From an uncultured cyanobacterium (GTDB lineage Bacteria; Cyanobacteriota; Cyanobacteriia; Cyanobacteriales; CAWCAG01), in the NCBI GenBank assembly GCA_963803805.1, contig CAWDOD010000009.1, forward strand, positions 32,001 to 96,000: a stretch of DNA of 64,000 nt, given 5' to 3'. Shown here piece by piece: positions 6,336-50,893 of this stretch (position 1 is the stretch's first letter; every line of letters begins with the position of its first letter). The notes under the pieces are model-generated. The model did no database searches. It was not told the DNA's origin and saw only the letters and a list, made by a program, of their open reading frames with translations. Made by a program: the position numbers and the translations under genes.

Positions 6336-9300
6336 CTACCAAGGACTACCGACTAAAGTAAAGCCAGACCAGTTAGAAGGATGGGAAAAGTCGCTTTTTG
6401 ACAAACTTGAGAGCTGCTTGGACATATCTTCTTTTGTTTGAAGTCGTGCTGTTATATTGCCCACTTCCCCCCGTAGTAGGTCAATTTGAGCTTTTCTTAA
6501 AGCTACTGCTTTAGTTTTAGACTCTGGTAAATATTGGTAAAACTTACTCATCAAGGCAAAAGTAGCTAAGTCGTCGCTTTTCCATAAACTAGCAATCGCA
6601 GATTTAACCCCAGCTTTAATAGCTAAGCCAGCAAAACCCATTTCTGCATACTTATCTCCTAAAGCAGTTTCACAAGCACTAAGAACAAGCAAGTCTACTT
6701 CTGGGTCTTTTGACCATTGCAAATCTGTTAAATTATCTAAGAGAAGTTTCTGATCCCACATTTGAATGTAGGATTCTTTGCCTTGAGATTGGAATCTAGC
6801 GTGAGTTGCCAGATGAATAACCTTGAAAGGTTGTTGCCGTAGTGCTTTAAGGTTAACTAAGGTCGCTTCTTCATTGAGAAAAGCCTGACTCCCGGTTATT
6901 TGTTCAGAGATGGCTGCTATTTCAGCAGGGACAGCAGGTAAAGCCTCTTTGCTGTTAGCAAACTCAGAAACTCCCATAGCCAGCAATTCCCCTTCTTTAA
7001 TTTTGCTATGTTCAACATCCGCGAAGGTGAAGCTAGGAATTACACTAGTTTGGTATTTTTCTATCAAAAACTGTTCACCGTCATACAAGGCCGCAACAGG
7101 TAAAGAACGCATTTCACCATCTAAAGAAAAAAGGAGAGTGTCAATGTTTTGGGCTGCTAACTCTGCTTCAATAGGTGCAATCAGCCAATTGTAGAGTTCT
7201 TGAGCTTCATTGCGGTAGTGGGATATTTTGCTATCTCGTAATTTTTGCTGCAAGCGATAAACTTTGCGGCGTATTTCTTGCTTGTTGGTATCAAGGATAG
7301 TTTTACTAATTTGTTTCCCATCAGGGCGTAGCAAAGTTATTTTCAGTTGTTCTTCAGCAAACTCAGTATAGATAACAGCCGGATTAATACCAACTTCGGT
7401 TTGCACTTCCTTTAAGCGATTTTGAATATCAATTCCTGTCATTAGCTGGTTAGGGAAGCTAACGCCAAAATGATTAACGTATTCTTGTGTACGGCGTTTC
7501 TCAATTTCTAGTTCTTCATCAGCAAGGTTTTCTTCTTCTGTAATGTCCCTTAAGGTTGTATTTTGACCAATGTTAACTTTGTCTACATTTACCTGGGGAG
7601 CTTCGGCATCAATAATACCAAATTCTCCGTTACCATCATAGGCGCTGGAATCAATTAACTTGGCCGTAATTGATTCCCATGCACGTAGGGTAACATCTCC
7701 TCCAGAGCCAACGTTGCTAGAAGTAATGAAATAATCACCGTTAATATTACGACCCCCTAAATAAAGATCGCCGCCATCACCATAGCGGGTAGTACCAGTG
7801 AAAGTAAGCCCAGGAAGATTAATATCAAAACCAGCATTGCCTGTAATATCCCCTCCAAGCCCATCGATTGCACCAGTAAATAAGGAAAGGTTACTGATAA
7901 TAATGTTGCCTCTGTTATCAATGAAGCTAGGGTTTTTAAATAAGAAGGTATTGAATAGAAGATTATCCACGGCAGGATTAAGGATTTTAATACCACCGTT
8001 AAGGGTTATTTCCCCTGTTAAGGTTACACCAAATAGAAGTTCTATCGCTGGATGAACAGTTTTACCTGAAGGGGTTACAGTAAAAGTACTACCACTCGTG
8101 CTGCAATTCAGTCCTGCACCTCCCCCAGCACCACATTGGGTCATCAAATAGTCTCGCAGCACCCCAGTAGAAACTTTGATATCATTACCAGTGGTGATGA
8201 AAATATCTCCACCTTTACCCCTTATAGCACCGGAGAGAATGCTACTAAAGTCAACATTGCCCCCAGCAAAGATTTTTACTTCACCCCCATTTCCTCTTCC
8301 CAAACTACCAGAACCAATTGTCTCCACAGATACGTCACCTTGCTCACTAAAAATTAAGACATTGCCCCCATTTCCCTGATCAGCTTGGGATTGTATGGCT
8401 TTTATGTTAATATTTCCCTTGGCAATAAAAGCTGCATTACCCCCATCACCTGAGTAGGTGGCACGAGTGTAACCACTATGGGTATTGATATTCCCACCAG
8501 CTCTATAAAAGATTGAACCTCTTAGTCCATTGTCACTATCAGCTCTCGGTGACTGAGTGTTAATATTTCCTTGGGGCGCATAGACACCTATTGTCCCTCC
8601 TCCTGTTACTCCACTAGCTTCTAGATCTCTAGTAGTAATATTTCCCTGCAAAGAGGTTAAGAAAATATTGCCTCCCTTAGCCTGCCATGACCTAGCCTCA
8701 ATATCACTACCAATGGTGATATCATTAAGAGCATTAATGAGAACTGAACCACCACCATTCAAACCATTTGGCCACAACTCTACATCAATACGCCCCATTA
8801 CTACATCACCGAAGTTGACGGGAACATTATTGAGAAGCACGCTGGGAGAATTAGCGACAATGCCTCCACCAGTGGTAACAACTAAACCTGTATTGACATT
8901 AGCAGCGTCTGCACCAGTGAGTAAAGCAGGTAAATCTTTAGGTTGGAAGGGTAGTACATTGCCTTGAGGATCTCTTGGTGGTTCAATTTCTAAGCTTAGA
9001 ATGCTCCCCGGTTGAGAGATTCTGACACGACTTGAACCTTCTACAGCAGCAACAATAATTTTACCTTCTGGAGCAAACGATGTAGCAGTATTAACTACTG
9101 TTCCCCCCAAGAAGGTTAAGCTTTTTCCCTCTTTTACAGGCAAGCCACCGCCAATAATAATTGCTCCTGGTTGTGGTGAATCGAAGGCGAATTGAGTGGG
9201 ATTTCCTACTAGGCTGTTATAGTCATTAACTCCTACTGCATTAAACCAATTATTGTCACCGAAGCCAATACCTGTAGCGGTGGTTGCAGTGAAGTCTCCC

Positions 9301-9701
9301 GGCACATTTAAAAACGCATTGCTACCAAAAACCATGCCTGCGGGGTTCATTAAAAAGAGATTAGAATTTCCCCCTGTTACTTTAATTAAACCGTCGATAA
9401 TAGAAGGATTGCCGCCAACTACTCTACCTAAAATGTTTTGTATTCCAGGTTGAGACATAAAGTTAGCTATTTGCCCAGGATTGAGTCCCAACTCTTTAAA
9501 ACTATGGAAAAGATTGATGTCGACACGAGTACCGCCAGTAATATCCAGTTGGTTAGGATTAATACTATTGTTATTAACTAATGTACCTGTCCCATCATTT
9601 GCAGGCTCAATTTGCGCCTGCCCTTTCTCTACATAAAAAGCCGTAGCACAAACAGCAGCACCGACAAATAACAAACTAAGTTTTTGGTAGATGGTATTCA
9701 T
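6336..9701 (-). CDS. Filamentous haemagglutinin (TPS) N-terminal domain + beta-helix + C-terminal CHAT protease
   Basis: Signal peptide; TPS motifs NLFHSF, NILGRVVGG, NLFLMNPAG; Gly-rich GGNI repeats; CHAT dyad HLATH and LVLSAC; ends HPSNWSGFTLVGSPW. Confidence 0.92.
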   Translation of the reverse strand: MNTIYQKLSLLFVGAAVCATAFYVEKGQAQIEPANDGTGTLVNNNSINPNQLDITGGTRVDINLFHSFKELGLNPGQIANFMSQPGIQNILGRVVGGNPSIIDGLIKVTGGNSNLFLMNPAGMVFGSNAFLNVPGDFTATTATGIGFGDNNWFNAVGVNDYNSLVGNPTQFAFDSPQPGAIIIGGGLPVKEGKSLTFLGGTVVNTATSFAPEGKIIVAAVEGSSRVRISQPGSILSLEIEPPRDPQGNVLPFQPKDLPALLTGADAANVNTGLVVTTGGGIVANSPSVLLNNVPVNFGDVVMGRIDVELWPNGLNGGGSVLINALNDITIGSDIEARSWQAKGGNIFLTSLQGNITTRDLEASGVTGGGTIGVYAPQGNINTQSPRADSDNGLRGSIFYRAGGNINTHSGYTRATYSGDGGNAAFIAKGNINIKAIQSQADQGNGGNVLIFSEQGDVSVETIGSGSLGRGNGGEVKIFAGGNVDFSSILSGAIRGKGGDIFITTGNDIKVSTGVLRDYLMTQCGAGGGAGLNCSTSGSTFTVTPSGKTVHPAIELLFGVTLTGEITLNGGIKILNPAVDNLLFNTFLFKNPSFIDNRGNIIISNLSLFTGAIDGLGGDITGNAGFDINLPGLTFTGTTRYGDGGDLYLGGRNINGDYFITSSNVGSGGDVTLRAWESITAKLIDSSAYDGNGEFGIIDAEAPQVNVDKVNIGQNTTLRDITEEENLADEELEIEKRRTQEYVNHFGVSFPNQLMTGIDIQNRLKEVQTEVGINPAVIYTEFAEEQLKITLLRPDGKQISKTILDTNKQEIRRKVYRLQQKLRDSKISHYRNEAQELYNWLIAPIEAELAAQNIDTLLFSLDGEMRSLPVAALYDGEQFLIEKYQTSVIPSFTFADVEHSKIKEGELLAMGVSEFANSKEALPAVPAEIAAISEQITGSQAFLNEEATLVNLKALRQQPFKVIHLATHARFQSQGKESYIQMWDQKLLLDNLTDLQWSKDPEVDLLVLSACETALGDKYAEMGFAGLAIKAGVKSAIASLWKSDDLATFALMSKFYQYLPESKTKAVALRKAQIDLLRGEVGNITARLQTKEDMSKQLSSLSKSDFSHPSNWSGFTLVGSPW

Positions 9702-10777
9702 GAGTTGATTTCCGGTTTTAATAGTTTTTAAATCTTTTAAATAAATGCTGAGATATTAGAGTTTGATGTGAACGAAGAGTTTTCTAAAATCCACATTTTC
9801 ATAGAGCATTTAATAAATTGCTTAACTCCATTACTCGCTGAGTATCACCCCAGCTTTCATAAATAACTATTACTTTTTCTAAATAGCTTCTCGCTTTATT
9901 TGCCTCTCCTAAATCGATGTACAAAGAAGCTAGCTCTTCTGTTGCTGCTACTTGTTCTGTTTCTGAAGCTGCTAACTCCACAGCTTTTAAATAAGCTTTT
10001 TCTGCTAAGTTAGCTAGCTCAATGGAGTGATAGATTTCTGCTAAAGTACGATAAACGGCCGAACTTACTTTAGTTTGTGCTAAAAACTTTTGTAGACTAT
10101 TAATAGCTTCTAATTTAAGGTCATAGTGAAGATATATCTGAGCTAAAGATAAAACCTGACCTTCTGTATTCAAACTAGTATTATTGAGAACTTGTTCAAC
10201 TTCATTTCTTACTTCTTTTTGTTCGCTATTAGTAAGTAAAGTAAATCCTAAGTTAGAAGCTTTATCTTCACTGGAGTAGCGATAGTTACTTGCTTCGATA
10301 AAAAGAGAATAGTAAGTTCCTGGTTGTAAAGGAAATTCACCATCGTATATGATGTTATTATCAGTAACTTCTTGACTCCAGATAAAATCTTCTCCTTCAA
10401 TTGTGACGTAATAATTATCAACTCCAGAAACCGCATTCCAAGTTAAAATTATGGGTTGATCGTTAAACAAACTTGTACGACGAGGACTAATAATATAGGG
10501 AATGCTGGGATTACTCCTAGCAATATCACCACGGCGAGGACAGCCCAAACTCCCAGGTGTACAGTTAGCTTCTTCTTTTTTGGCACAGTTATTAAGCCAA
10601 TTACTACTTTGAATATTTTTTAACTTCAAAGTACTACACTGTACCGTAACTGCCCCTCCTGTTGCTGCTAATAGTTTGTCTCCCGGATAAAGAAGAGTTC
10701 CTAAGTTTGCTTCAACTAAATAACCAGGCGATCGCTCAATTTTTACCTCCCCAGTAAGAGAAACTATTTGTCCGTTA

Positions 10778-11955
10778 CAGAAGCGTTGAGTGATAGCAAA
10801 TAAAAGTAAAAAAGAGCCTCCAAATTGGTAAAATGGAAGCGATTAAAATAAATAATAAAGTTAAGTAGATGGTATCAAACTTCCCAAAAATAGTCAAAAA
10901 GTACCTGGGAGACTTACCCAAAGACGATTATCCAGTACTAAATACATTTTTATTTGTATCAACCTGGCTAAGTTTCGTATTAGACCAAGGGCAAGTAAGC
11001 ATGACTTCTGTATTCAAAACTCTGAATATTCGTGGCATAACAGTAGATAAATCAACATTCTCCAGAGCGAGTAAAAAACGAGACCCAATGTTGTTTTACA
11101 ATCTGTTTAAAAAACTGAGAAAACAGTTAAACAAGAGTAAAAAAATAGACAACAGAAGGTTAGCTTTGTTTCCTTTAGATTCAACCATAGTGACATTGAC
11201 AAGTAAGTTACTAACAAAGCAAGGATTAAAACAAGTTAAATTATTTAGTGGTCTGAACTTATTAACATCCTCCCCAGAAGGAATACTGATACACTTTGGT
11301 CAAGGTCATGACAGCAAGTATGGAGACTATACAATAGAGTCTAATCCTGAAAACGGAGTTAGCCTAATGGATAGAGGGTTTTCAGGATTGTCAAGAATCA
11401 GGTCACTATTGAGTGAAACCAATAAATATTTCCTATTAAGAATAAAGAAAAACATAAGCATTCAAATGCTAGAGAATGGCAATTACATATTGGGTAAAGG
11501 AAAAGAGCAAGTAGAAGTAAGAGTAGTAATATTTTGCGACTTAGAAAGTAGAACAGAATTTCGACTAGCAACTAACTTGCCAGAAAAAGGAGAGGAGGAA
11601 ATGAGTAACCAAGAAATTGGAGAATTGTACCGTTTAAGATGGCAAATAGAATTGTTCTGGAAATTCCTTAAGATGCACTTAAAACTAGACAAATTAATAA
11701 CTAAAAACACTAATGGAATTGAAATCCAAATATACAGTTGCTTGATTGGTTATGTGTTACTAGCTTTGGTGAAAATACCTCAAGAGTTTGGCAATAAACT
11801 ATTAGATAAGCTTCGCTATTTACAGGCTTTTATGAGTGAACATATCAGCTATGTTCACTGGTTTAAAAAGCTAGTGTTCATATAAAGGTATTTTCTTGAT
11901 CATAGGTGTAGTGTGTCTATTTTTAGACTGAACACCCCCTCGCGCAACACTTCTG
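10778..11955 (+). mobile_element. IS4-family insertion sequence, complete
   Basis: TIRs CAGAAGCGTTG / CAACACTTCTG; 8-bp target duplication GTCCGTTA at 10770-10777 and 11956-11963. Confidence 0.92.
10869..11885 (+). CDS. IS4-family DDE transposase
   Basis: LDST, MDRGF and YRLRWQIELFWKFLK (YREK-type) motifs. Confidence 0.93.
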   Translation: MVSNFPKIVKKYLGDLPKDDYPVLNTFLFVSTWLSFVLDQGQVSMTSVFKTLNIRGITVDKSTFSRASKKRDPMLFYNLFKKLRKQLNKSKKIDNRRLALFPLDSTIVTLTSKLLTKQGLKQVKLFSGLNLLTSSPEGILIHFGQGHDSKYGDYTIESNPENGVSLMDRGFSGLSRIRSLLSETNKYFLLRIKKNISIQMLENGNYILGKGKEQVEVRVVIFCDLESRTEFRLATNLPEKGEEEMSNQEIGELYRLRWQIELFWKFLKMHLKLDKLITKNTNGIEIQIYSCLIGYVLLALVKIPQEFGNKLLDKLRYLQAFMSEHISYVHWFKKLVFI

Positions 11956-12123
11956 GTCCGTTAGATAAGGTAGTGGAAGTTGCTCTAGCCGGCAAAACAG
12001 AGGTAGTAAAAATCAAACCAATACTTAAACTCTTAAAAAGATATTGTAACCAAGAATTAACTTCTAGAAATAGCGGAAACTTTTGCCCCTTACCTTTTAC
12101 TTTTTGCTTATACCTAAACATAA

Positions 12124-13937: not shown

Positions 13938-14999
13938 TCAAGTGGTGAAAGATTCAATAAAACTAAGCTCATCACTAGTTACTTTAAGCTGAAACTTAGT
14001 ATTTGGTTCCACACGAAATCTTCTCAATTGTATATACTGATCTTGAGAGCGAGAAGTTACTTCTTGTAAAATTTCCATTGCTTCTGAAAGCAAAATTAAA
14101 TCCAGATTAGCTGGTAAAATCGACTCTCTGACTGAATGCAATTGTACCAAGATATTCAATCTTTGATCTTCTTCTTGAGTTATGGCTACCAACAAAGCTA
14201 AATTCTGTTCCCTCAATTGGAAACCTAAATCGATTAATTTAGCCCTAGCAATATCACTATTTCCTAAACGTTCAAGAAAGTTCCTTTGCTGAAGATTCGG
14301 GTAACTACGGAACTGCCAGTTAGCTTCTGGAGGAGGAGTAAATAAATCTCCAATTCCTTGCCAACCCTGCTGAAAAATATTACCAAACCAACTTGTCAAA
14401 TTAGTAGTATCTTCTGCATTAGGTTCGACTGTAGTTTCCGGCTGAGGTACAAAAACAGCCTCCAAATCTTGCCAAGCTGCGGAGAATTTTCCGGTTAACC
14501 AAGCTGTAAGATTAACTTGCGATCGCTCTAATTCATCAATCTGTTCTAAAAAAGTATCAAGGGGCTGTAAATCTGCCCTAAATAATTCTCCTGTCTCTGC
14601 TGAAGGAGCAAAACCTAAAATTATGCCCTTTTTACTCTCTGAATCAATTTCCACCATGATATAGCCCAAGCGTTCTCCTCTTTCCTCTAAAGGCAAATGA
14701 CAACTAGAACTACCCTTTAGTACAGGGCGACAGACCAACCGTCCTAAGCCTGTCACCATTAAATCTGCTATATCCACAGTTAAACGTATTGCTGGGTTCC
14801 AGCTATCGCTTGCTTCAAGACTTGTAGCAATATCCATTAACTGACAATAACTATGTACTGTCCAAACAGCTAAAGTATTCAAATAAATTTGTTCTGCCTT
14901 CTCAGGAGAGAAATTATCTCTGGCAAACCTTTGTGCAGTCTGCAATGCTGATTGAGTTAAAGGTAAACAGATAACTTCTGCGTGAGTGATCTCGTTCAT
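13938..14999 (-). CDS. DUF1822 family protein
   Basis: Family-like motifs IYLNTLAVWTV, DL.V.GLGRL.CRPV, NL..W.....WQ (twice), RAKLIDLG and DQYIQL. Confidence 0.85.
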   Translation of the reverse strand: MNEITHAEVICLPLTQSALQTAQRFARDNFSPEKAEQIYLNTLAVWTVHSYCQLMDIATSLEASDSWNPAIRLTVDIADLMVTGLGRLVCRPVLKGSSSCHLPLEERGERLGYIMVEIDSESKKGIILGFAPSAETGELFRADLQPLDTFLEQIDELERSQVNLTAWLTGKFSAAWQDLEAVFVPQPETTVEPNAEDTTNLTSWFGNIFQQGWQGIGDLFTPPPEANWQFRSYPNLQQRNFLERLGNSDIARAKLIDLGFQLREQNLALLVAITQEEDQRLNILVQLHSVRESILPANLDLILLSEAMEILQEVTSRSQDQYIQLRRFRVEPNTKFQLKVTSDELSFIESFTT

Positions 15000-15022: not shown

Positions 15023-15700
15023 TTAAAGGTATCCCTGATGTCGAGCAAATTTTCGCAACTTAGGCAAACATTTTCTCTGGTAAAAATTAGCTAAAGTTGA
15101 GTAGGAACAGTCCCACTCAGCCCCTAATTGTTGCCAACTAGTTTCCGGGGGCAAACGGCGCAAAATTATGAGTTGACAAGTAATATCCTTTCTACCTTTT
15201 ACATGGATACTTCGTAATTCTCCTTCAGGATCGCTTTGAACCCAATGCCGGGTTTCCTCTTGAATATCTTGAGTAGCTGGAGGTGCAGGAATATTTTGCA
15301 CAGGGTCATAAAAATTACCTTCTTTCGCTGCTGATGGTAAAACTCGCTTTTCCTTTTCTGCTTGGGCTTGCAGATAAAAGTCTTGCAAACGGCGTTTGAG
15401 ATAACGATCTAACCAAGTTGTCACTAAACTCTTTTGGGGATTATATGGTTGTTTTGCCGTAACAGCTTCACAAAGATTGCGGCAAAGATATATCCAAGTT
15501 TGTTGCAAAGCATCTTCATAATAATCTGTCTGTTCATGCCAAAGTTTACCTGCTTTAGTGATAGCCGCAATCAAACGATTAAGGTATTTGCGTCGCTGTA
15601 AACTCTGGGGTGGTTGACAACAAGCTTGGTTGACTAACTGTTGAAGATAGTCTTTGTTCGGAATAGATGATGGTTTTTCTTCTGAGTTAGGACAACTCAT
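15023..15700 (-). CDS. Sigma-70-family (ECF-like) RNA polymerase sigma factor
   Basis: Sigma-2-like YYEDALQQTWIYLCRN...TTWLDRYLKRRLQD; C-terminal HTH WQQLGAEWDCSYSTLANFYQRKCLPKL; directly upstream of DUF1822. Confidence 0.8.
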   Translation of the reverse strand: MSCPNSEEKPSSIPNKDYLQQLVNQACCQPPQSLQRRKYLNRLIAAITKAGKLWHEQTDYYEDALQQTWIYLCRNLCEAVTAKQPYNPQKSLVTTWLDRYLKRRLQDFYLQAQAEKEKRVLPSAAKEGNFYDPVQNIPAPPATQDIQEETRHWVQSDPEGELRSIHVKGRKDITCQLIILRRLPPETSWQQLGAEWDCSYSTLANFYQRKCLPKLRKFARHQGYL

Positions 15701-16535
15701 GGTTAGCACTCTAATTTTGGCCTGTTATTTAAAAGCATCCACTATTACTTTTGCTGCAACAGCGATCGCCTTAATCTCTAGCCAATCAGGCCAAGCAGCA
15801 ACGATATCTACATCGGAATCTCAACCGATTGATTTAACCACCTGGCAACAAGAAGGTTCTCCTGAAAATGGTAACTGGGTTGTCTCTCCTGATGGTAGCT
15901 CAGTTCTCCAAACTATTAACGGAATTCCCACTTTCTTTGTTAGCCCCGACAATTTTATTGACACCGAAATTAAAGGAAAATTTGGCGTTGCATCACCTGG
16001 TAATTGGGATGATGACTGGATAGGCTTTGTCTTTGGATACCAGTCTCCGATAGCAGCTAATGGTGATGAACTCAACAACCTAAATTTCTTACTATTTGAC
16101 TGGAAGCAAAATGGAGGTATAAGCCGTGGTAACGAAGGCTTTAGTTTGATTAAAGTTGATGGTAACTTTACTAATCTTGATGCTACCTTCTGGAGACGTT
16201 CACCTACTCCTGAATTTGAATTTTTAGCTACTAACTACGGTTCGAATAAAGGTTGGCGAGATAATACCGAATATGATTTCACACTGCTTTATCAAAGCAA
16301 TCGCATCAAAATTGACATTGATGGAAGCACTATTTTTGATATCGAGGGTGAATTTGAGCCTGGGCGCTTTGGTTTTTATAATCACTCTCAAGAATATGTC
16401 GGTTATTCTGGGTTAACCCAAAAGCCAGCACCAGTGCCAGAATCTAGTTCTGTATTAGCTTTGTTAGGGGTTAGCACTGGGAGTTTTTTGCTTGCTCAAG
16501 GCAAAAAGCGAAAGAGTAAAGCATTAAGCAATTAG
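15699..16535 (+). CDS. PEP-CTERM protein with a thrombospondin C-terminal-like (lectin-fold) domain
   Basis: DDDWIGFVFGYQ resembles the TSP-C signature; ends PVPESSSVLALLGV...KKRKSK. The start position is uncertain. Confidence 0.8.
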   Translation: MVSTLILACYLKASTITFAATAIALISSQSGQAATISTSESQPIDLTTWQQEGSPENGNWVVSPDGSSVLQTINGIPTFFVSPDNFIDTEIKGKFGVASPGNWDDDWIGFVFGYQSPIAANGDELNNLNFLLFDWKQNGGISRGNEGFSLIKVDGNFTNLDATFWRRSPTPEFEFLATNYGSNKGWRDNTEYDFTLLYQSNRIKIDIDGSTIFDIEGEFEPGRFGFYNHSQEYVGYSGLTQKPAPVPESSSVLALLGVSTGSFLLAQGKKRKSKALSN

Positions 16536-16589: not shown

Positions 16590-17420
16590 TCAATTGAACT
16601 TGTTAACCTCTTCTACAGACAAACCTAAAGCCTCAGCCACCTGCTCTGTGGTTAGCCCCATACTCAACAATCGAGGAATAGAGTCTTGTAGTTTCTGTTC
16701 AGTCTGTTGCAGGTTTTGTTCAGCCTGTTGCAAATCCTGTTCAGCTTGTTGTAGATTCTGTTGGGCTATTTCTTCTGGCAAGGGGACTACATTCTCCCCA
16801 TCCTCGTCGTAGTAAAAACGTAACCAGCTTGCTTGCACCTCATCAATAACTCCATCCCAGGTTCCTAACCATAAACCTAAACTCTCACACCATAGCCAAC
16901 CTTTCCCGTTGGCTTCGAGGGCTTGATAGCCTTGTTGTAAATCCAAACTCCAGCCCAACAATGAATTGGGGTCAAAGGGATTAAACACAAAGTAATCTGG
17001 TGTGCGGAAAGTCTGTTCGTAGAGGTCTTTTTTCTTCCCTGTATCATTACTTGCTGTTGAACGAGACATCAGTTCAATGATGACATTTGGGTAACGGCCA
17101 TTTTCTTCCCAGACTACCCAACCTTGGCGTTCATAGGTTCCATCTATGTTTAAGACTAGAAAAAAGTCCGGCCCTCGGAAGTCTTGATTGCGAACTTGTT
17201 GGCTGCTGTAGTAGACAAACATATTGCCCCCAACAAAGTAGTCGGTTCGGTTAGCAAGAGCAGCAGGAATTGAGCGAATGAGGACATTCATCGCTTGTCG
17301 GTGGCGATTGGTTTCCAAGGGTTCTCCATCATCAAAGATTAACTCTGTCGGCGGTGGGGTTGGTTCCCATTCGACGGCATTATCAGTAGTATTTTGGTCT
17401 TGGCTTAGTAGGGTTGACAT
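16590..17420 (-). CDS. Uma2 family (PD-(D/E)XK) putative endonuclease
   Basis: DDGEPLETNRH, FRGPDFF, PNVIIELMS.STA..D..KK.LY; QAEQ coiled-coil tail. Confidence 0.92.
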   Translation of the reverse strand: MSTLLSQDQNTTDNAVEWEPTPPPTELIFDDGEPLETNRHRQAMNVLIRSIPAALANRTDYFVGGNMFVYYSSQQVRNQDFRGPDFFLVLNIDGTYERQGWVVWEENGRYPNVIIELMSRSTASNDTGKKKDLYEQTFRTPDYFVFNPFDPNSLLGWSLDLQQGYQALEANGKGWLWCESLGLWLGTWDGVIDEVQASWLRFYYDEDGENVVPLPEEIAQQNLQQAEQDLQQAEQNLQQTEQKLQDSIPRLLSMGLTTEQVAEALGLSVEEVNKFN

Positions 17421-18894: not shown

Positions 18895-19900
18895 GTTCGA
18901 TGAAGTTAAAAAACAGCAGAAGGAAGTTCAGCTAGGCCTTTGGGGTCAAGGTCAAGGGAAGGCTTTTTGGGCAAGAAAGTATAAGCGATTAGACCAGCTA
19001 AGAGATTAACCAAAAAATTCCAAACGCTACGGTGTCTTGAATGCTGAATCTGACAGATATTCTTGAGCTGGTCATTAACAGTCTCAATCAGAGAACGCTT
19101 ACGTAGGAGAATCTTATCCTGAAGACGCATTAACTTCGGCTTCATATTTTTCTTGCGGTGTGTAATCAGTTGTAGTCTTTGTTCATAGAGTTTCTCAAAC
19201 AAATCCTGAGAAATATAACCTCGGTCGCCAAATAACTTACCAATCAAGCCATCAGCCATATCTGGCACAGGGTTACGGTCATCAGTATTACCCTCTGTAA
19301 GTTTGAAAGCAAGCAGCTCACCTTTGTCATTAATAATTAGATGTAGCTTGAAGCCATAATGCCATCCCATAGCATTTTTGCCCCAACCTACCAAACCTTC
19401 AAAAACACGGTGGCTTTTGGAGCGATTCGGGTGGCAGACCTCAATGGGGGTAGAATCAATAAAGCTGATGCCGGTAATTTCTCCTCGAAGAGTATGTAGA
19501 AAACAGCAAAGAAGCATTAAGCTCCACGGCATTAGCTCTACGAATCGAGTGTAACTGACCAAGTTGGGAAAAGCTTTCTTCCAGTAAGGCAAGACTTGTA
19601 GAGTGTAAAATTCTTTAAAAGTGCGAAATCCCGAACCATGAAAGGCAATGACAATGGTCATCACTTCGCTTAGGCTTAGGCGGGAGCGACATAGACGCTC
19701 TCCACAAGTTGCTGTTAACATTGGCTGTTGTTGCCAATGCCTCTCAAACCTTTGATAAAAGTCATCTACCTGACAGAATATTTGGGTGATATCGAGACGA
19801 GATACAATATTGGACATAGCATCAGATTCTGATTAAGATTCATTTTCAGCATACCTCTGATGCTTTTCTTTTCTCTCTTTTTCCTCCGTCGAACTCACGT
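18889..19900 (-). mobile_element. IS982-family insertion sequence, complete
   Basis: TIRs ACGTGAGTTCGA / TCGAACTCACGT; target duplication TGGCAA at 18883-18888 and 19901-19906. Confidence 0.92.
18906..19817 (-). CDS. IS982-family transposase
   Basis: IDSTPI, GWHYGFKLHL, GDRGYIS and RKRSLIETVNDQLKN motifs. Confidence 0.95.
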   Translation of the reverse strand: MSNIVSRLDITQIFCQVDDFYQRFERHWQQQPMLTATCGERLCRSRLSLSEVMTIVIAFHGSGFRTFKEFYTLQVLPYWKKAFPNLVSYTRFVELMPWSLMLLCCFLHTLRGEITGISFIDSTPIEVCHPNRSKSHRVFEGLVGWGKNAMGWHYGFKLHLIINDKGELLAFKLTEGNTDDRNPVPDMADGLIGKLFGDRGYISQDLFEKLYEQRLQLITHRKKNMKPKLMRLQDKILLRKRSLIETVNDQLKNICQIQHSRHRSVWNFLVNLLAGLIAYTFLPKKPSLDLDPKGLAELPSAVF

Positions 19901-34047: not shown

Positions 34048-34899
34048 TTAGTGATACCTACGGTGGGCTTTGCCTACGCAACAAGAAATAATTGATTGTT
34101 CTGCTAAGGATTCTAAACCCACATACTCTGATTTTAATAAATCTCGTAAGTATAGTTTAGCTAGTTCTGAATCGAGAGGGTATAACTCTTGCAAAATAGT
34201 GGTTATCGTTTCATTCCAAAGACCATCTTGAGCATAAAGAATGACTTTTTCTTCTGGTTTTGCTGTAGGTATAGGAGTTAGTTGAGGTGTTGCATTTACT
34301 CTTCTTAGATTACCTTCTACATAAACATCAGAATCTCTATTTTCGGGGTCACAAATAATTGTCAAACTCCAATAATAATTTTTTCCTACTACTAGAGGTT
34401 TATCCTGTAAAATAATACTAACAATTCCCGGAGTTTTATCTATTTTATAGATGCCATTGTGGGCAACCTCTTGGCTTTCATTGGTCATGACTAGAAACTC
34501 TGCTTCTAGTTCTCCTTTAGCAGGATAAGGAATATAGAACCAGAAAGTAGGAGATTCTTGAGCAGTGATAGACCAAAGAGTTTTATCTTCTGCAACTTGA
34601 TTGTTATCCTGTGAGGCCAAACCTTCACCTGGAACTAAAGCTGTTAAGTTAGGGATAGATTGAGGGCATCTATCTTCACCATAACTGCCAGTAGCAGACT
34701 GACTAGATGGCCCTTGTTCAGATCCTTTTTTAGCTCTGGGAATAAATATTAATTCATTATTAGTGTTGGTAGTAATTTCTTCGGTAACACTAGGAGTTTG
34801 TGCTACTATTTTCTCTTCAACTAGAGACAAGATACTAAGAGTAAAAAATGCTACAAGAGCAAGCTTACTGATTAGGAGAAATGAGAAAAATAGTTTCAT
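34048..34899 (-). CDS. DUF928 family exported protein
   Basis: Signal peptide; motifs LTALVP, PTFWFYIPY, TPGIVSI, YYWSLTIICDP and YAQDGLWNE. Confidence 0.88.
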   Translation of the reverse strand: MKLFFSFLLISKLALVAFFTLSILSLVEEKIVAQTPSVTEEITTNTNNELIFIPRAKKGSEQGPSSQSATGSYGEDRCPQSIPNLTALVPGEGLASQDNNQVAEDKTLWSITAQESPTFWFYIPYPAKGELEAEFLVMTNESQEVAHNGIYKIDKTPGIVSIILQDKPLVVGKNYYWSLTIICDPENRDSDVYVEGNLRRVNATPQLTPIPTAKPEEKVILYAQDGLWNETITTILQELYPLDSELAKLYLRDLLKSEYVGLESLAEQSIISCCVGKAHRRYH

Positions 34900-34903
34900 A
34901 ATT

Positions 34904-37291: not shown

Positions 37292-37295
37292 TGCT

Positions 37296-40040
37296 TTAGT
37301 TCCCAACTAATACAAAAGGTGACCAATGATAAGGACTGGTATATCTACTTTCTTCTAGTAAATATTGTTGGGCTAAATGTAATGCTTCTGCTTTGCTAAC
37401 TTCTTTATTGACTAAATTTTCATAAAACTTTTCAATTATTAAATTAGAAGAGGCTTGGTCTACCGTCCATAAAGGAGCAACTGTTCCTTTTGCTCCTGAT
37501 TTTACAGCAACTCCTGCAATACCCAAGACAGCCCGATTGTCTCCTTCTGCTGATTCACAGGCGCTGAGAACTAATAGTTCTATTCTTTGCTTTTGTGGTG
37601 TAGTTTTAAGCAGGTTTTCAAATTCATTGATGTTTAGAGAATAACCTTCTATGGTTGCGGCTAGATCGTCAGTAAGAATGAATGTTTCTTGGGGGTTAGA
37701 ACTAAATTGACCGTGGGTTACTAGGTGGATGATGGGATAGTAATTATTGACTAGTTCTTGTTTGATTGCTGCTTTAGTGAAGTTACCATTACTAAGGATT
37801 TTGTAGTCGGGTAGAATGTTTTTTATGGCAGTAATTTGGGCTTTGACGTTTGCTTCTAGAGGATTATAGTTATCGCGCTGTTTGATTGCACCACCTACTA
37901 AGGCAGTTAAGTTTTGCGATTGAAAGCTTAGGGGTTGGAGAAGTTGTACGGTGGGAACAACGAGGGTGGCATAATTTTGGGCGGCTAGATAGTTTTCTCC
38001 ATTGTGTAAGGCACTCATGGGGATGGGACGGAAGATGTTATCGAGGATGAAGATTAAAGTTTTGATTTGTGCTTGTTCTAAATTAGAAAGAGATTTAGCT
38101 AGTAAGAGTTGGTACAACTCTTGTAAGGGTTGTTTTTGATTGGGCAGGAGGCGACGTTTGGTTTGTAAGGTTTTTTGGGCGGCTTGGACAATTTTTCCTA
38201 CTTGGTTTTTATCTTGGGCTGTTACTTGATAAACTAGTTTTTCTTGGTTGGGTAGTTTGAGAATTACTGCTACTTGTTCCGGTAAGAGAATGGGATAAAG
38301 GAAGGCGGTCTTTTGCTCAGGATCATTTTGAATTACTCTCTCGATACGCTTGATTAATAGCTCGATTTGTGCTTGCTGGGTAGTGATTTCTGTCGGTAGC
38401 AAACCTTCAGTGTCTTGGCTTTGAACGGTACAGCGTAGGAAGTTTTCTAATTCTGCTAATTGTAGGGCTTCGACGTAGTAAAGGGACTTTCTAAGATGTT
38501 CTTGGGGAGGATTAGTTTCTCCTTTTGGTAGCAACAGAGAGACTAGTTGACGATATAAAGGTTCGACGTTATCTCGAAAGGAAAATTGGACATCGGAATT
38601 GATGATAAGTAGGTCACGACGCACTTTGTCTAGGGTTTGGGCTGCTGATTCATAAGCTGCGATCGCCTCTTTCCTTTTACCTTGACTAGCCAAGAGTCTA
38701 CCTAGTTGCCATTGCCATTGATAAGCAATGCCAGGACTTCCTTGGGGTTGGACAATCAGTAAGGCTTGTTGTGTTAAGCGTTGGGCTTGTTCACGCCACT
38801 GTTGGGCCATTGTCGGTTGTGAAGCAACGTTGGCAAAGTACTCTTCTAGACCACCTAAGTTCCCCAAAGTGTATGCTTGGGCGTAGTTATCTTCTAATTC
38901 TTGGGCTTCGTTTAAGGCTGTGTTAAGGAGATTAGTTATGGTTTGCCAGCTAGTAGGTAATAGGTGTTGCTTAGGTGTTGACTTTTTTGACTCTTGACCT
39001 CTAGCCCTATTTGGACTTGGGGGTTTTTGGGAGATTTGCTGTAGAAAGGCTAGGCTTTTGGCTAGGTTGATGCGGAGGTAGATTTTGGTGCGACTTAAGG
39101 GTAGAGTTTCTAGATTGATTTGTAAATCTTGGGGTTGGGGTTGCAGTCCTCTTTCTAATAGCAAGCTGAGATGGTTAATTTTACTCCTAGTTTTTAAGGA
39201 CAGAGGTAAGGAAGTATTTTTAATTAAAGCCAGATAAAGATTATCTGCTTGTTCGTAAAATGTCTTTGCATCGTCAGGAATAGATTTAGTTTCATAACGC
39301 CAAGGGAGATGTTGATATTCTGGTTGAGAGAGGCGATCGCGTTCTAAATTTCCCCTTGCCCTGAAAGTATTAGCTAAGCTAAGTTGTGTTGCACCTTTAG
39401 TTTCGGGATCAACCGCTTTAGTGGCAGCCTGTTGCAACACGAATTCTGAATCTTCTAACCTGCCCATTCCCCGAAATAAGTTACCCCAAGAGCGTAAACC
39501 ATCTACCTGTATTAGTATAGAAGGAAGGCGATTATAGCTAGCTAATAGTTGTAATTTCTCCCCAGTTAATTCGCTACAGTGGAGAGGGGCAAGTTGAAAG
39601 GCAGCAATGAGGGTATTGCAGGCGCGAGGATATAAGCCTAAAGCTTGCAGTCCCCTGCTTTGGTTAATTTGACTAAGGGTGACACCAGCATAATCGGCTA
39701 AATTTTCATAAACAGTCTGGGCTTCTTGCCAGGTTTCTAAGGCTTGTTGTGGTTTTCCTAGAGTTAACTGGATGTTACCTAAATTAGTTAAAGTAATGGC
39801 AACATTCTCCTGTTGTTCCTCCTCGCGAAACAATTCTACAGCTTCTTGTAAAGATGCGATCGCATCATTTAATTTCCCTGCTTGATAATAAGTTTTCCCT
39901 TCCTGTACCAACTGTTGGGGAGTAGTTTGCGCCCGCAACATAGTCGGACAAAGAGTAATAAACAAAGCCAACAAAAAAGCCAAAACCTGTCGCAAAGCCA
40001 ACCAACGAAAACCCAAAAAATATCTATGCACCATCATCAA
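37296..40040 (-). CDS. Secreted TPR + CHAT protease
   Basis: Signal peptide; TPRs; AYQWQWQLGRL; dyad IHLVTHGQF and LVLSAC; ends PYHWSPFVLVGN. Confidence 0.92.
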   Translation of the reverse strand: MMMVHRYFLGFRWLALRQVLAFLLALFITLCPTMLRAQTTPQQLVQEGKTYYQAGKLNDAIASLQEAVELFREEEQQENVAITLTNLGNIQLTLGKPQQALETWQEAQTVYENLADYAGVTLSQINQSRGLQALGLYPRACNTLIAAFQLAPLHCSELTGEKLQLLASYNRLPSILIQVDGLRSWGNLFRGMGRLEDSEFVLQQAATKAVDPETKGATQLSLANTFRARGNLERDRLSQPEYQHLPWRYETKSIPDDAKTFYEQADNLYLALIKNTSLPLSLKTRSKINHLSLLLERGLQPQPQDLQINLETLPLSRTKIYLRINLAKSLAFLQQISQKPPSPNRARGQESKKSTPKQHLLPTSWQTITNLLNTALNEAQELEDNYAQAYTLGNLGGLEEYFANVASQPTMAQQWREQAQRLTQQALLIVQPQGSPGIAYQWQWQLGRLLASQGKRKEAIAAYESAAQTLDKVRRDLLIINSDVQFSFRDNVEPLYRQLVSLLLPKGETNPPQEHLRKSLYYVEALQLAELENFLRCTVQSQDTEGLLPTEITTQQAQIELLIKRIERVIQNDPEQKTAFLYPILLPEQVAVILKLPNQEKLVYQVTAQDKNQVGKIVQAAQKTLQTKRRLLPNQKQPLQELYQLLLAKSLSNLEQAQIKTLIFILDNIFRPIPMSALHNGENYLAAQNYATLVVPTVQLLQPLSFQSQNLTALVGGAIKQRDNYNPLEANVKAQITAIKNILPDYKILSNGNFTKAAIKQELVNNYYPIIHLVTHGQFSSNPQETFILTDDLAATIEGYSLNINEFENLLKTTPQKQRIELLVLSACESAEGDNRAVLGIAGVAVKSGAKGTVAPLWTVDQASSNLIIEKFYENLVNKEVSKAEALHLAQQYLLEESRYTSPYHWSPFVLVGN

Positions 40041-47509: not shown

Positions 47510-47638
47510 GATCATCGAAGGGAACAGGAGACTACATAAATTACTCTGGTTCAATGCCCTCCTTTTTATGCAGCTATCCCCGGATTTGCTATATATTTTA
47601 ATATTTGTTAATAATTTGCAATAGCTAAATCACTTCTC

Positions 47639-49093
47639 CTAAGCAACAAAAGACTGCAAAATATCAGTTTCTCCAATAGAAATTCTCACCTCAAAAACTG
47701 CCCCAACCGGAGGGTAAAAACGTAACTGTAAAGATTGATCTCCTTTACCTTCATTATCCTGTCTTGCCGTTACTTCCCTATACACCTCTCCCGAAATCAC
47801 TAAAGCAAGTTTAACTCCTGGGGGCAACTTCGCTTTTTTCCCTACACTCTTCAACTCCAACCATACACCAACCTTACTATCCTCGCGGGGCATCAATGCC
47901 ACCACCAAGGCAATATGTTTCCCCTCTAGCTGCCAAGCCAAATCAATCAACCTCCCCTTTCTAATCCCTCCTTGGGGGTGTTGGGGGGCAACCTTACCCA
48001 AACTAAGGGCTGCTTGCCAACGGGTTTCTTCTTCCTTGCTAGTAGAGAGTAAATCTTCTAAAGCCTGCACAACTTCAGGATTACCGATACCAAGTTCCCC
48101 TAAAACTCCCGCAGCTTGACGACGAACATTTTCAGTGCGATCGTTCCTCAACAACTCCATTATCGACTTTAACTCCTGGGGATTATTACCAGGTTGAGAA
48201 GCCGTTACACCTCTAACTGACACTGTTTCTGGAGGGATTAATAAATCTTCAACTCCATGCCAACCTTCTTCAATTACCTCCGTTACCCTTTGCAACCAGC
48301 TACGCAAATTAATAGCTGTAACTGTCTTGCTTCCTCGTCTTCGGTACAATTCCAATTCCTGCCGCCATTTCTCGTTGCTAATCAAAGCTGCCCACTGTTG
48401 AAAATCTATTGCTAATCTAGGGTTATGTAAATTGCGATCGCTTAACTTCCTTAGCAAATCTTCAGCCTGTTGATTAGATAACTTGGAAATTGGTTGAGAC
48501 AGAGTTACTTGATTAGGAGTAGGTTGTAATTCTGTGAGTAAATTAGTCAAGCCCTCAGTTAAATATTTGGCTGGTAAATTGTAAGTGCGATCGCCTTGAT
48601 TATATTTACCCTGACTTTTTATTTTCCCATAACTTGCCCCTCCCCACAAACGTAACCAAGATTGTTCAGGGTTAACTTGTACAGCTAAATAATGATCTGC
48701 TTGCCAATCCAGAATATCTACCCATTCTTGAGGAATAACCAACTCATCAGTTTCACTCATGTCTCCAGGTAACAAAACTAGCCTTACCCGTTCTAAATTA
48801 ATAGCACTACCATTAACTACCTCCCACATACTAGCTAAAGATTGTTCTTGAAAAATATCTAGCTTAACTAAAATGTTTTCATGATCATTTTCGAGTAATA
48901 AATCTTCCTCTAACCAACCTTGAAGCCAAGGGATAAATGTATGCAGACATAGATAATTTAAATAAGCATTACAACGAGCTGTCGTATTAGAATGTTGCCG
49001 TGATACTTGCCAAGCTTCCTTGTGAATTTGGGGAGATATTTCCAACCACAATTGCTGAGAAAAGACTGTTGCTAGTTTTTCAATATCAAACAT
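47639..49093 (-). CDS. DUF1822 family protein with inserted HEAT repeats
   Basis: AYLNYLCL, SMWEVVNG, IPQEWVD, YLAVQV and GRLIDL motifs; HEAT-like VRRQAAGVLGEL and TRWQAALSLGKV. Confidence 0.87.
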   Translation of the reverse strand: MFDIEKLATVFSQQLWLEISPQIHKEAWQVSRQHSNTTARCNAYLNYLCLHTFIPWLQGWLEEDLLLENDHENILVKLDIFQEQSLASMWEVVNGSAINLERVRLVLLPGDMSETDELVIPQEWVDILDWQADHYLAVQVNPEQSWLRLWGGASYGKIKSQGKYNQGDRTYNLPAKYLTEGLTNLLTELQPTPNQVTLSQPISKLSNQQAEDLLRKLSDRNLHNPRLAIDFQQWAALISNEKWRQELELYRRRGSKTVTAINLRSWLQRVTEVIEEGWHGVEDLLIPPETVSVRGVTASQPGNNPQELKSIMELLRNDRTENVRRQAAGVLGELGIGNPEVVQALEDLLSTSKEEETRWQAALSLGKVAPQHPQGGIRKGRLIDLAWQLEGKHIALVVALMPREDSKVGVWLELKSVGKKAKLPPGVKLALVISGEVYREVTARQDNEGKGDQSLQLRFYPPVGAVFEVRISIGETDILQSFVA

Positions 49094-49135
49094 AGTTATA
49101 GTTCCTAAAAATAATCATTTAATTACTACTACAAA

Positions 49136-50893
49136 TTAGTCAATTAAATTAGAAGAGTAAACCAAATTACTTAACCACTCTTCAATCACTCTAGCTAAGT
49201 GCTTTTCTTCCTTACTATCAAAATCAATACTGAACTGAGACTTAATCCATTGATGCAGTTGAGTCTGTAAATATTGTCTAGCATGAGCGATAGTACTAGA
49301 AATGTTTAGATGAGAATAATTACTTTGTATTTGCTCTTGCTGCTGTTGCTGACAGTAATACAGCTTGATAATCTCTCTACTCTCTTGATCTACCGTTTGT
49401 AAAAAATTTAGCAAAACCAAATCAATAACTCTTCTATAGTGAGAACTTAACCAGAAGTGAACCATTCCTTGCTTAGATTTTTGCATTTCAGTAAATAACG
49501 AATTTGCCAATTCTTTTTTTAAATCGTGAATTTTTTCCTCAATATATTCTTTTGTTTTATTTAGTTGCTCAACAATTTGTTCGATACTTATTTTTTGAAT
49601 AAATTTTAATTTGACTATTATTTTTAACTCAGCATCAAATTCTTGTAGGACATCACTTAAAACTTCTTTTACAAAGCTATTGTCACTCTCATTACTAATG
49701 CCTGAATCAAGAAAATCATTCACACAATTTTCAACCCAAGTTTCTTCTGTGATTGCTAATTGTCTGTTAATTAAAAATTCAAGTTTCCTAAGTAAAGTCT
49801 GTCTATAATGGGCATCTATGTATCGTGAAACAGTACCTTGATGAACCCCAACTTTAGCTGCGAATTGTGACTGTCTAAGTAAATAAAAAGAATGGTTGTA
49901 ACATAGTAGCATTAGTCCCTTGCGAAATTGCTTTGGTATGCGACTACGAAAATTTTCCTCTTTCTTCTCTACATTACTAAGTTCCTCTCTAAAAGCTTGT
50001 TCTACTTGTTGAGCAAAACTAGAGTGTTCTTCTTGATTCTCTAATCTTTGCCAAGGACTACCTGAAAACTCATTTCCCCTAGCATACTTTTCATAGTCAT
50101 TGGCATCACGAGAAACTTCTAAAATATTTTGATAGTCGTATAATGCTGCGATAGTTTGGTTTAACAATACTTCTAACTCTTTGGTTGTCAAGTCTAAATC
50201 ATAAGACAAACTAGGGGGAACATCAGGTTGAAATCGTCTACTATTATAATCCTTCGTTGCTGCGGTAAAATCTGCCTGTTCTGGACTGGGCGAACTATCG
50301 TTAGAATTTCTATAGGGATTGTAAATATGATTTTCCTTGTAAACTCTAATAAAACATTCCCACGCCAGTACATAGCGAGAAATTGCCCTAGGAGACAGTC
50401 CTGATCTAGCTAGAGCTTGTTTGATATCTTTTCGAGAACTATGACCTAATAAATGCCAAGAGGATTGCAGTTTTAACCTTTCCTTGATACGACGCTCTAC
50501 TACACTAGCAAAATAACCTCTGAAACTAGACTGGCTAATATGTTGAGGATTGTATCTGTTGAGGATTGTTTTCAAACCATTTCTATCAGTTAAAAGATCC
50601 GTAATTACTTCTGAGTAAGAATCCTCTCCTTCTTCATAGTTGTATAACTTCAAAGATAACTTTTTAATAACTTGCTTTATAACTGGATATAGGTGAACAA
50701 TAAACCACAGATAAGCAGTTTTTTTAAGGCTATTCGCTTGATAATCATCGTTAATAATGTGCAGAAAATGTCTAAAGTAATCATTTTCTGTCCAGTTAGG
50801 ATGTTGTTTGGCTAGTCTATCTAAGCACCTAGCTAATTTAGGGTCATAAAACTGGTTCCAATACATTACTCTTTTCGCTTGAGGTAGACGCAA
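49136..50893 (-). CDS. Long sigma-70-like factor with several C-terminal HTH-like units
   Basis: Sigma-2-like region (RYNPQ..SSFRGYFASVVERRIKE, SSWHLL); HTH QSQFAAKVGVHQGTVSRY followed by further KL.F/Y...EQI units; directly upstream of DUF1822. The start position is uncertain. Confidence 0.7.
   Translation of the reverse strand: MRLPQAKRVMYWNQFYDPKLARCLDRLAKQHPNWTENDYFRHFLHIINDDYQANSLKKTAYLWFIVHLYPVIKQVIKKLSLKLYNYEEGEDSYSEVITDLLTDRNGLKTILNRYNPQHISQSSFRGYFASVVERRIKERLKLQSSWHLLGHSSRKDIKQALARSGLSPRAISRYVLAWECFIRVYKENHIYNPYRNSNDSSPSPEQADFTAATKDYNSRRFQPDVPPSLSYDLDLTTKELEVLLNQTIAALYDYQNILEVSRDANDYEKYARGNEFSGSPWQRLENQEEHSSFAQQVEQAFREELSNVEKKEENFRSRIPKQFRKGLMLLCYNHSFYLLRQSQFAAKVGVHQGTVSRYIDAHYRQTLLRKLEFLINRQLAITEETWVENCVNDFLDSGISNESDNSFVKEVLSDVLQEFDAELKIIVKLKFIQKISIEQIVEQLNKTKEYIEEKIHDLKKELANSLFTEMQKSKQGMVHFWLSSHYRRVIDLVLLNFLQTVDQESREIIKLYYCQQQQQEQIQSNYSHLNISSTIAHARQYLQTQLHQWIKSQFSIDFDSKEEKHLARVIEEWLSNLVYSSNLID

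Follow-up and report, generated by a model that had tools for sequence, protein, structure and literature searches.

The described systems nearest in design to the two gene cassettes considered here are the HetF-PatU3-HetZ pathway of Anabaena and a caspase-sensor gene neighbourhood identified by computation. The cassettes lie on the minus strand of a 64,000-nt stretch of DNA (the window: contig 9, positions 32001-96000, of the 5.3-Mb genome of a filamentous cyanobacterium), and each joins a sigma-like gene, a DUF1822 (PF08852) gene and a membrane-anchored CHAT protease with a secreted arm, comprising a secreted CHAT protease and an exoprotein with a two-partner secretion (TPS) domain. In the accessible text of Xing et al. 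(PNAS 2022, PMC9457339), HetF has a cytoplasmic CHAT domain, a transmembrane (TM) segment and a periplasmic TPR region; it cuts PatU3, which sequesters HetZ, between R117 and S118, and the C295A substitution abolishes the cut. HetZ is described, in what is accessible of a later study, as a sigma factor of the extracytoplasmic function (ECF) type with insertions, and PatU3 (PatU in other filamentous cyanobacteria), which binds and inhibits it and whose gene is cotranscribed with hetZ, as its likely anti-sigma factor (Hu et al., PNAS 2026, PMC13342950). An earlier note on this DNA had proposed that an outside protease or ligand step activates the membrane CHAT protease, which then cleaves DUF1822, acting as an anti-sigma factor, and so releases the sigma factor; it had also stated that no characterised pathway with this layout was known to its author. 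The latter statement does not stand: the CHARACTERISED pathway, in which the membrane CHAT protease HetF acts on the likely anti-sigma factor PatU3 and through it on the sigma factor HetZ, has the same logic.

A neighbourhood of sigma factor, DUF1822 and membrane caspase-sensor genes has likewise already been reported from computational analysis (Kaur, Iyer, Burroughs & Aravind, eLife 2021, PMC8195603). The accessible text of that study describes proteins that combine a caspase domain with an N-terminal domain that is constant (EACC2) and a C-terminus that varies, for example CHASE2, and proposes, from computation and with no experiments, that sensing leads through autopeptidase activation to sigma-driven transcription. 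The cassettes share this organization: both membrane CHATs carry a caspase-fold His-Cys dyad behind a constant N-terminal module (matched to EACC2 by description) and end in a variable sensor (TPR in cassette 1, CHASE2 in cassette 2) with TM segments, and an adjoining DUF1822 gene is present in both, together with a gene for an ECF-type sigma factor in cassette 2 and for a putative one in cassette 1. The secreted arm and the pairing of CHASE2 with DUF928 are not described by Kaur et al., since their main text mentions neither hemagglutinin nor DUF928.

Unlike a plain TpsA protein, the TPS exoprotein of cassette 1 ends in a CHAT protease. A further parallel is the type III-E CRISPR Craspase, in which Csx29 (TPR-CHAT) cuts Csx30, which holds an RpoE-like sigma factor. 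There, as is proposed for the cassettes, release of a sigma factor depends on a CHAT protease that cuts the protein bound to it; however, the Craspase protease is RNA-guided, whereas that of the cassettes is a membrane sensor. The sigma factor of one relative matched the III-E sigma model at 28 bits, below the cut-off of 100, and a Pfam scan found no Cas family among the window's open reading frames (ORFs) of at least 100 aa (CRISPR arrays were not searched for). A literature search returned no paper joining DUF928 with CHAT, or CHAT with hemagglutinin in cyanobacteria, or naming PF08852; the single paper that mentions DUF928 is unrelated, and DUF1822 is named in just two, one of them Kaur et al. 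The words HetF, CHAT and DUF1822 are absent from the main text of Hu et al., whose HetZ-homolog tree lies in the supporting information. Within the searchable literature, outside of which supporting files fall, the combination of CHASE2, DUF928 and a secreted arm, the DUF1822 fold, the conserved linker Arg and the parallel with HetF-PatU3-HetZ therefore appear to be new.

From this comparison and the evidence below, we regard the chances as evenly balanced that each cassette works as a switch across the envelope, its sigma factor being gated by a protease. The interpretation offered in the earlier note is partly supported: gene linkage and sigma-DUF1822 binding have support, DUF1822 cleavage is inferred from a conserved linker Arg and the analogy with HetF, and the outside step is likewise inferred.

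Composition and conservation of the cassettes

The ORF listing of the window and the Pfam and NCBIfam scans, on which gene and domain calls are based (Table 1), bear out two minus-strand gene runs with the expected parts. A sigma gene had been placed first in each run; this is correct for cassette 2, whose protein scores above the TIGR02937 cut-off, and the 228-aa protein at the head of cassette 1 matches no family model. Similarly, of the small exported protein expected in each, cassette 2 has DUF928, and the TPR gene of cassette 1 proved to be split by a 1178-bp insertion sequence (IS). Spacing in cassette 2 is tight: by ORF coordinates, the first three junctions are gaps of 42, 84 and 35 nt, and at the last two the genes overlap by 11 and 35 nt.

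Pairwise alignments confirm that His and Cys are kept in all four CHAT domains. The membrane CHATs of the two cassettes are 34% identical across 410 residues and both contain GHS and FNSCDG; among aligned relatives, their catalytic His and Cys are invariant (12 of 12), and W97, L98, P135 and W136 are conserved ahead of the CHAT core. The secreted CHATs, 28% identical across 361 residues, both contain TH and LSAC. A hydropathy script places a TM segment at ~386-405, right behind the CHAT domain, in both membrane proteins, assigns signal-like N-termini to the two secreted CHATs as well as to the TPS protein and DUF928, and detects no TM segment in either sigma factor or either DUF1822. Because the CHAT domain lies N-terminal and the sensor C-terminal to the TM segment, the membrane CHAT faces the cytoplasm and the TPR or CHASE2 domain faces outward, the orientation that had been proposed.

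Profile searches of the genome identified six sigma-DUF1822 pairs, five with a membrane CHAT gene beside them, so that the same gene set is present in three further cassettes beyond cassettes 1 and 2. All five CHAT-bearing cassettes carry a secreted CHAT gene, a TPS gene or both, in differing orders and fusion states, and two of the paralogous cassettes (contigs 7 and 3) include a TpsB gene of the ShlB/POTRA_2 type. Across a broader set of genomes, PF08852 is present in 211 of 301 members of the phylum and in none of 14 control genomes; the membrane-CHAT N-module is present in 68 of 121 genomes of the class.

Two neighbourhood surveys indicate that the genes are kept together across genera. 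The first covered 20 genomes, each of a different genus, and took 20-kb stretches around the best DUF1822 match; in all 20, the gene immediately upstream of DUF1822, in the same orientation, is sigma-like, and in 8 the stretch includes a membrane CHAT gene. The second covered 37 genera, taking the first-listed membrane-CHAT match of 35 genera together with two loci of the first survey (one genus was omitted and the second-listed genome used for another, and relatives are not independent samples); its counts are lower bounds, as contig ends cut five stretches. DUF1822 is directly upstream of the membrane CHAT gene in 31 of the 37, and in 30 a sigma-like gene is present no more than 4 kb away. 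DUF928 directly follows the CHASE2-type CHAT gene in 27 of 28 genera, as against 0 of 9 for other C-terminal types. The core set of sigma factor, DUF1822 and membrane CHAT is firmly conserved. Outside the cassettes, DUF928 also adjoins CHASE2 proteins that have no CHAT domain (in this genome, contig 11, 486278-489369, and contig 9, 191125-194242; and, in extracted stretch L042, 15855-18974), and the DUF928-CHASE2 pairing is therefore wider than the cassettes.

The surveys also bear on whether the secreted arm belongs to the unit at all. Within 10 kb of CHASE2-type loci, a secreted CHAT gene is found in 13 of 28, a TPS gene in 13, either of them in 18 and a TpsB gene in 5; the corresponding figure for a secreted CHAT or TPS gene is 1 of 9 for non-CHASE2 types and 1 of 12 where a sigma-DUF1822 pair has no membrane CHAT. 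The secreted arm is specifically associated with loci of the CHASE2-DUF928 type. Were only the core (sigma, DUF1822, membrane CHAT and DUF928 or the TPR protein) a unit, with TPS and secreted CHAT genes merely gathering nearby in variable regions, this contrast would not be expected, nor would the position of both genes in cassette 2, where they sit within the operon, flanked by DUF1822 and the membrane CHAT and separated by no more than 84 nt from their neighbours, nor the promoter block shared with the secreted arm in the contig-2 paralog of cassette 1 (described below). Such genes are nevertheless common in this genome, with ~32 secreted-type CHAT ORFs and 18 TPS ORFs; their position and strand differ between genera, IS elements are present, and 10 of the 28 CHASE2-type loci have neither gene within 10 kb, which counts against a switch that includes the secreted arm. 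With both sets of observations in view, a core-only unit seems to us very unlikely.

DUF1822 and its predicted complex with the sigma factor

An AlphaFold2 model of the cassette 1 DUF1822, built on a 54-sequence alignment (mean predicted local distance difference test, pLDDT, 83.9; predicted template modelling score 0.61), comprises an alpha/beta N-domain (~10-170), a linker (194-234, pLDDT <50) and a C-terminal beta-sandwich (250-352). A Foldseek comparison of the model with the Protein Data Bank (PDB) gave no match at E <= 0.001. A wide VIA search with the N-domain placed PD-(D/E)xK nucleases in all of the top four positions: I-Ssp6803I (Z 8.7, root-mean-square deviation 3.1, 114 residues aligned), the Hjc structures 1ob8 (Z 8.1) and 1gef (Z 7.3), and D212 (Z 7.2), though such Z values are close to those that unmatched models often reach. 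On this model, DUF1822 is predicted to be a nuclease-like domain followed by a disordered linker and a beta-sandwich, and not the TPR protein that Kaur et al. call it in the accessible text; if so, the published label would be corrected at least for this subfamily. The fold search retrieved no sigma-binding domain of an anti-sigma factor, only part of the model having been well tested. By Pfam, the DUF1822 proteins match PF08852 alone (with HEAT in cassette 2), and NCBIfam gives no match.

Small genomes of a sister lineage (stretches L094 and L095) have PF08852 matches that cover the first 160-210 of 370 model positions, at the N-terminus of 500-1100-aa proteins; the DUF1822 N-domain travels alone in these genomes, and a Pfam scan of partial ORFs from them detected no anti-sigma motif.

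Across 54 relatives, D79, E89, C90 and R91 of the DUF1822 family are conserved; the cassette 1 protein itself has Val at position 89, where 53 of the 54 have Glu. Linker length varies from 27 to 101 residues among these relatives, while R231, within it, is shared by 52 of 54; the residue before it is F or L in 42, and the one after it is S or G in 37. This motif resembles the YR↓S site of PatU3 (the arrow marks the cut) and is a candidate cleavage site.

The identity of the sigma factors differs in firmness between the cassettes. For cassette 2, a subfamily profile matches SigF (1l0o_C) at 1e-12 and FliA as well, with region 2 and region 4 chains matched separately; its relatives are long (558-608 aa), with large insertions and extensions. 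For cassette 1, the 228-aa protein has 744 relatives carrying the NCBI name 'sigma-70 family RNA polymerase sigma factor', and its family aligns with the cassette 2 sigma type at a probability of 46% (hhalign).

The complex of the cassette 1 sigma factor with DUF1822 was modelled with both partners entered as alignments, in three runs with three controls. The score was 0.86 in all three runs, against 0.01 for the best control; 116 of 157 solved complexes and 2 of 215 mismatched pairs reach this mark, benchmarks that apply only roughly here because custom alignments were used. The runs share at least 86% of contacts, and partner pLDDT is 76. Sigma residues 35-76 and 146-228 are seated against the DUF1822 N-domain, and the C-terminal beta-sandwich is left free. 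Binding of the sigma factor by DUF1822, on which the earlier note depended, is thus supported by the model. Anti-sigma factors characteristically grip both halves of a sigma factor.

The same model could be read differently, with DUF1822 as an adaptor or co-factor that docks the sigma factor to the membrane caspase, the protease then processing itself or trimming the sigma factor in the manner of pro-sigma processing. The autopeptidase activation put forward by Kaur et al. would fit this arrangement, as would the length and large insertions of sigma 2 and its relatives, which suit pro-sigma trimming, a beta-sandwich free for another partner, and a nuclease-like N-domain whose conserved D79, E89, C90 and R91 could bind DNA. 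We nonetheless consider an adaptor unlikely: in the model, DUF1822 contacts the sigma-2-like part as well as the sigma-4-like part, in the manner of an anti-sigma factor; nothing else in the variable linker is conserved as well as one Arg of DUF1822 itself; and in the HetF analogue the substrate of the protease is the inhibitor of the sigma factor.

Comparison with HetF-PatU3-HetZ favours cleavage of DUF1822 by analogy. The CHAT-TM-TPR layout of HetF is exactly that of the cassette 1 membrane protease, and the HetF cut falls after an Arg and before a Ser in an inhibitor encoded directly downstream of the sigma gene; unlike the membrane CHAT genes of the cassettes, however, hetF does not adjoin hetZ-patU. 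The membrane CHATs are not HetF orthologs, matching the NCBIfam HetF model at 38.3 and 27.1 bits (cut-off 1200) and in the catalytic core only. In a feature-likeness search (Atlas) with DUF1822, the closest clusters other than those of DUF1822 were 'PatU' clusters (0.83), which serves as a lead only. The PatU model (pLDDT 73.7) has a C-terminal beta-sandwich and a helical N-terminal part without the nuclease-like domain, and it shares 12 of its top 50 PDB matches with the DUF1822 model; no HetZ chain was found in the PDB. The likeness is one of working principle and protease layout, and not of shown common descent.

This genome has hetZ and patU genes of its own, located by motifs from published peptides, on contig 11 (306030-308097, equivalent to L102:3030-5097) with an 8-nt overlap. 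Where PatU3 has its R117 site, the PatU of this genome reads SSPAR↓GTE, and model confidence drops there (residues 205-207). A HetF-like gene on contig 4 (206952-209332) matches NCBIfam HetF in three pieces and two open frames (206 and 623 aa), which suggests a frameshift, a stop or a split gene. Because the genome holds its own hetZ-patU and HetF-like gene elsewhere, the cassettes are systems separate from the HetF pathway. The widespread pairs of a ~390-aa sigma factor and a ~390-aa DUF1822 were considered as candidates for hetZ-patU and rejected, as they have no HetZ or PatU3 motif; conversely, none of the eight PF08852 matches of the genome falls at patU. A 936-aa ORF of another genome (L054:5489-8299) consists of HetZ in frame with a transglutaminase-like gene, with no PatU part; its HetZ portion is 64% identical to that of the present genome over 288 residues, a transglutaminase-like gene follows patU here, and a short sigma-DUF1822 pair stands directly after the 936-aa ORF.

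A proposed switch across the envelope

In the switch that we propose, DUF1822 would keep the cassette sigma factor inactive in the cytoplasm by holding its nuclease-like N-domain against the sigma-2-like and sigma-4-like parts; the binding, as distinct from the presumed inhibition, is supported by the model. The membrane protein would sense the periplasm through CHASE2 with DUF928 in cassette 2, and through TPR with the small exported TPR protein in cassette 1, as topology and the conserved pairing suggest. Upon sensing, the cytoplasmic CHAT domain would cut the DUF1822 linker after its conserved Arg (FR↓S/G; R231 in cassette 1), as HetF cuts PatU3 at R117. The freed sigma factor would then transcribe its own operon and the secreted arm, that is, the TPS exoprotein, the secreted CHAT and, in other cassettes, TpsB. 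More speculatively, the outside sensor may read the secreted arm, or else products of that arm on adjacent cells in the filament.

The one observation suggesting that the sigma factor drives the secreted arm is a promoter block shared between the two in a paralogous cassette. In the contig-2 paralog of cassette 1, a ~62-nt block stands 40 nt upstream of the sigma gene and recurs 61 nt ahead of the arm encoding Calx-beta, TPR and TPS-CHAT proteins. A bipartite pattern derived from the block has five sites genome-wide on both strands (the two on contig 2, one upstream of the contig-6 sigma gene, one on the divergent side of that region, and one other), four of which adjoin cassette-type sigma genes or the contig-2 secreted arm. 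Scans of cassette 2 for consensus promoters and terminators gave counts at the level of shuffled sequence.

Several further results weigh against the proposed switch. The predicted complex seats the sigma factor on the DUF1822 N-domain, so a cut in the linker alone would not free it, and the proposal has to include another event, for instance degradation or the loss of a tether. In the accessible text, Kaur et al. propose self-cleavage of the caspase and not cleavage of DUF1822. In the first survey, 12 of the 20 pairs have no membrane CHAT nearby, and DUF1822 therefore does not always need an adjacent protease. Profile comparison (hhalign) of PatU (24 sequences) with DUF1822 (54 sequences) reached a probability of 1.9% (E 0.026) over the C-terminal 57 columns, and that of HetZ with the cassette sigma factors 5.8% and 5.5%, homology not being detected. 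The evidence that cassette 1 encodes a sigma factor is weak, resting on faint profile matches, database names and gene position: among 42 relatives of the 228-aa protein, Pfam matches Sigma70_r2 in three and r4_2 in two, all weakly, and family profiles reach ECF sigma factors in the PDB at E values of 0.056 to 0.5, with 0.3 for the best such match of the 228-aa protein. Both exoproteins carry a TpsA-like TPS domain (PF05860, with TIGR01901 too), but the Pfam scan found no TpsB gene, adjacent or otherwise, among window ORFs of at least 100 aa, the genome having 10 TpsB-like ORFs elsewhere, and the ~62-nt promoter block was not found in either window cassette.

The number and setting of the proteases raise the alternative that the cassettes are conflict or cell-death systems, in which a caspase effector destroys cell proteins once an invader or damage has been signalled, the sigma factor drives a defence regulon and the TPS-CHAT proteins act as contact-dependent weapons. 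In the accessible text, Kaur et al. class these caspase proteins with systems of apoptosis and immunity; the genome has up to 11 membrane-type CHAT matches, six of them full-length strong copies, in addition to the many secreted-type ORFs; a solitary membrane-CHAT N-module of 535 aa (L008:3465-5900, contig 3) adjoins an EAD4-NB-ARC-TPR STAND gene; and IS elements and Uma2 genes lie beside the cassettes. Yet the strict pairing with a dedicated sigma factor and the protein that binds it, like that between CHASE2 and DUF928, argues for signalling, and HetF, the closest protease of this layout to have been studied, acts specifically in regulation. We accordingly judge a conflict function to be quite unlikely, and return to the sigma-gating switch.

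If that switch is real, caspase-like proteases would be a general gate for alternative sigma factors in cyanobacteria, and the HetF-PatU3-HetZ heterocyst switch would be one specialised case among many copies per genome (five cassettes here). The predicted sigma-DUF1822 interface, the candidate cleavage Arg and a candidate promoter common to the sigma operon and the secreted arm offer handles on the system, and the strict CHASE2-DUF928 pairing may lead to the ligand of CHASE2 domains. A broader extension, which we put forward tentatively and regard as doubtful, is that the cassettes and hetZ-patU/hetF are two branches of a cyanobacterial form of signalling by anti-sigma cutting, with DUF1822 as a new anti-sigma class of PD-(D/E)xK fold cut at FR↓S/G, and with CHASE2-DUF928 reading TPS exoproteins, processed by the secreted CHAT, of the cell itself or of its neighbours. 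Such a two-protease relay across the envelope would, if true, amount to contact or kin sensing in filaments.

Feature coordinates and neighbouring genes

Table 1. Genes and elements of the two cassettes, in window coordinates
Feature	Position	Strand	Evidence and remarks
Cassette 1
Sigma-like gene	15023-15709	-	228 aa as called, 225 aa in database form; no Pfam/NCBIfam match
DUF1822, candidate anti-sigma	13938-14999	-	PF08852, E 7e-67
Membrane CHAT protease, 599 aa	12124-13923	-	Pfam CHAT and TPR; N-domain and CHAT, TM 386-404, outside TPR
5' piece of small TPR gene	~11956-12121	-	Start codon and signal-like hydrophobic N-terminus; frame stops at IS border
IS, 1178 bp	10778-11955	+	DDE_Tnp_1 transposase ORF 10869-11885
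3' part of small TPR gene	9799-10777 (TPR ORF 9799-10629)	-	Pfam TPR matches
TPS haemagglutinin-like exoprotein with C-terminal CHAT	6336-9701	-	Pfam TPS 1.9e-41, CHAT 3.4e-64
Cassette 2
Sigma factor, 585 aa	49136-50893	-	TIGR02937, 60.1 bits (cut-off 42.9); insertions and C-terminal extension
DUF1822 with HEAT insert in linker	47639-49093	-	PF08852 1.8e-74, HEAT_2 1e-10; 'VSVRG' precedes insert
TPS exoprotein, 2492 aa	40076-47554	-	Pfam TPS 4.5e-42; DUF5649, DUF5650 repeats
Secreted TPR and CHAT protease	37296-40040	-	Pfam CHAT 6.9e-47, TPR; signal-like N-terminus; TH, LSAC
Membrane CHAT with outside CHASE2	34904-37306	-	Pfam CHASE2 1.2e-50, CHAT; TM 387-405 and 774-792
DUF928 exported protein	34048-34938	-	PF06051 2e-39; signal-like N-terminus

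An 8-bp repeat, GTCCGTTA, lies on both sides of the IS in cassette 1. A second copy of the element on contig 3 (195554-196731) is 99.7% identical, and entry into the TPR gene therefore looks recent. The 3' part of the interrupted gene is 36% identical to an intact paralog on contig 2 (359 aa, with a Calx-beta gene beside it), starting at residue 24 of the paralog. Because the IS splits the gene for the TPR partner and DUF1822 has lost the conserved Glu, cassette 1 is probably impaired and perhaps decaying.

A second IS (DDE_Tnp_1_3, 18906-19817) adjoins a 2323-aa ORF (20297-27268) whose Peptidase_S8 match does not include the first 93 model positions; the ORF may be truncated at its 5' end. 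Genes of the Uma2 family, putative restriction endonucleases, are present at four sigma-DUF1822 loci (window 16590-17420, L003:5995-6783, L005:5579-6166 and L007:3372-4058), and the family may simply be abundant. Between the cassettes lie genes for a 909-aa C39-like peptidase/BtrH_N protein (27475-30204) and then a PEP-CTERM protein (30551-31321). On the plus strand, a cluster at 51240-62998 encodes a fatty acyl-AMP ligase, an acyl carrier protein (ACP), an AurF-like protein, a 1972-aa polyketide synthase (ketosynthase, acyltransferase, ketoreductase, ACP and reductase domains), a glycosyltransferase and a methyltransferase.

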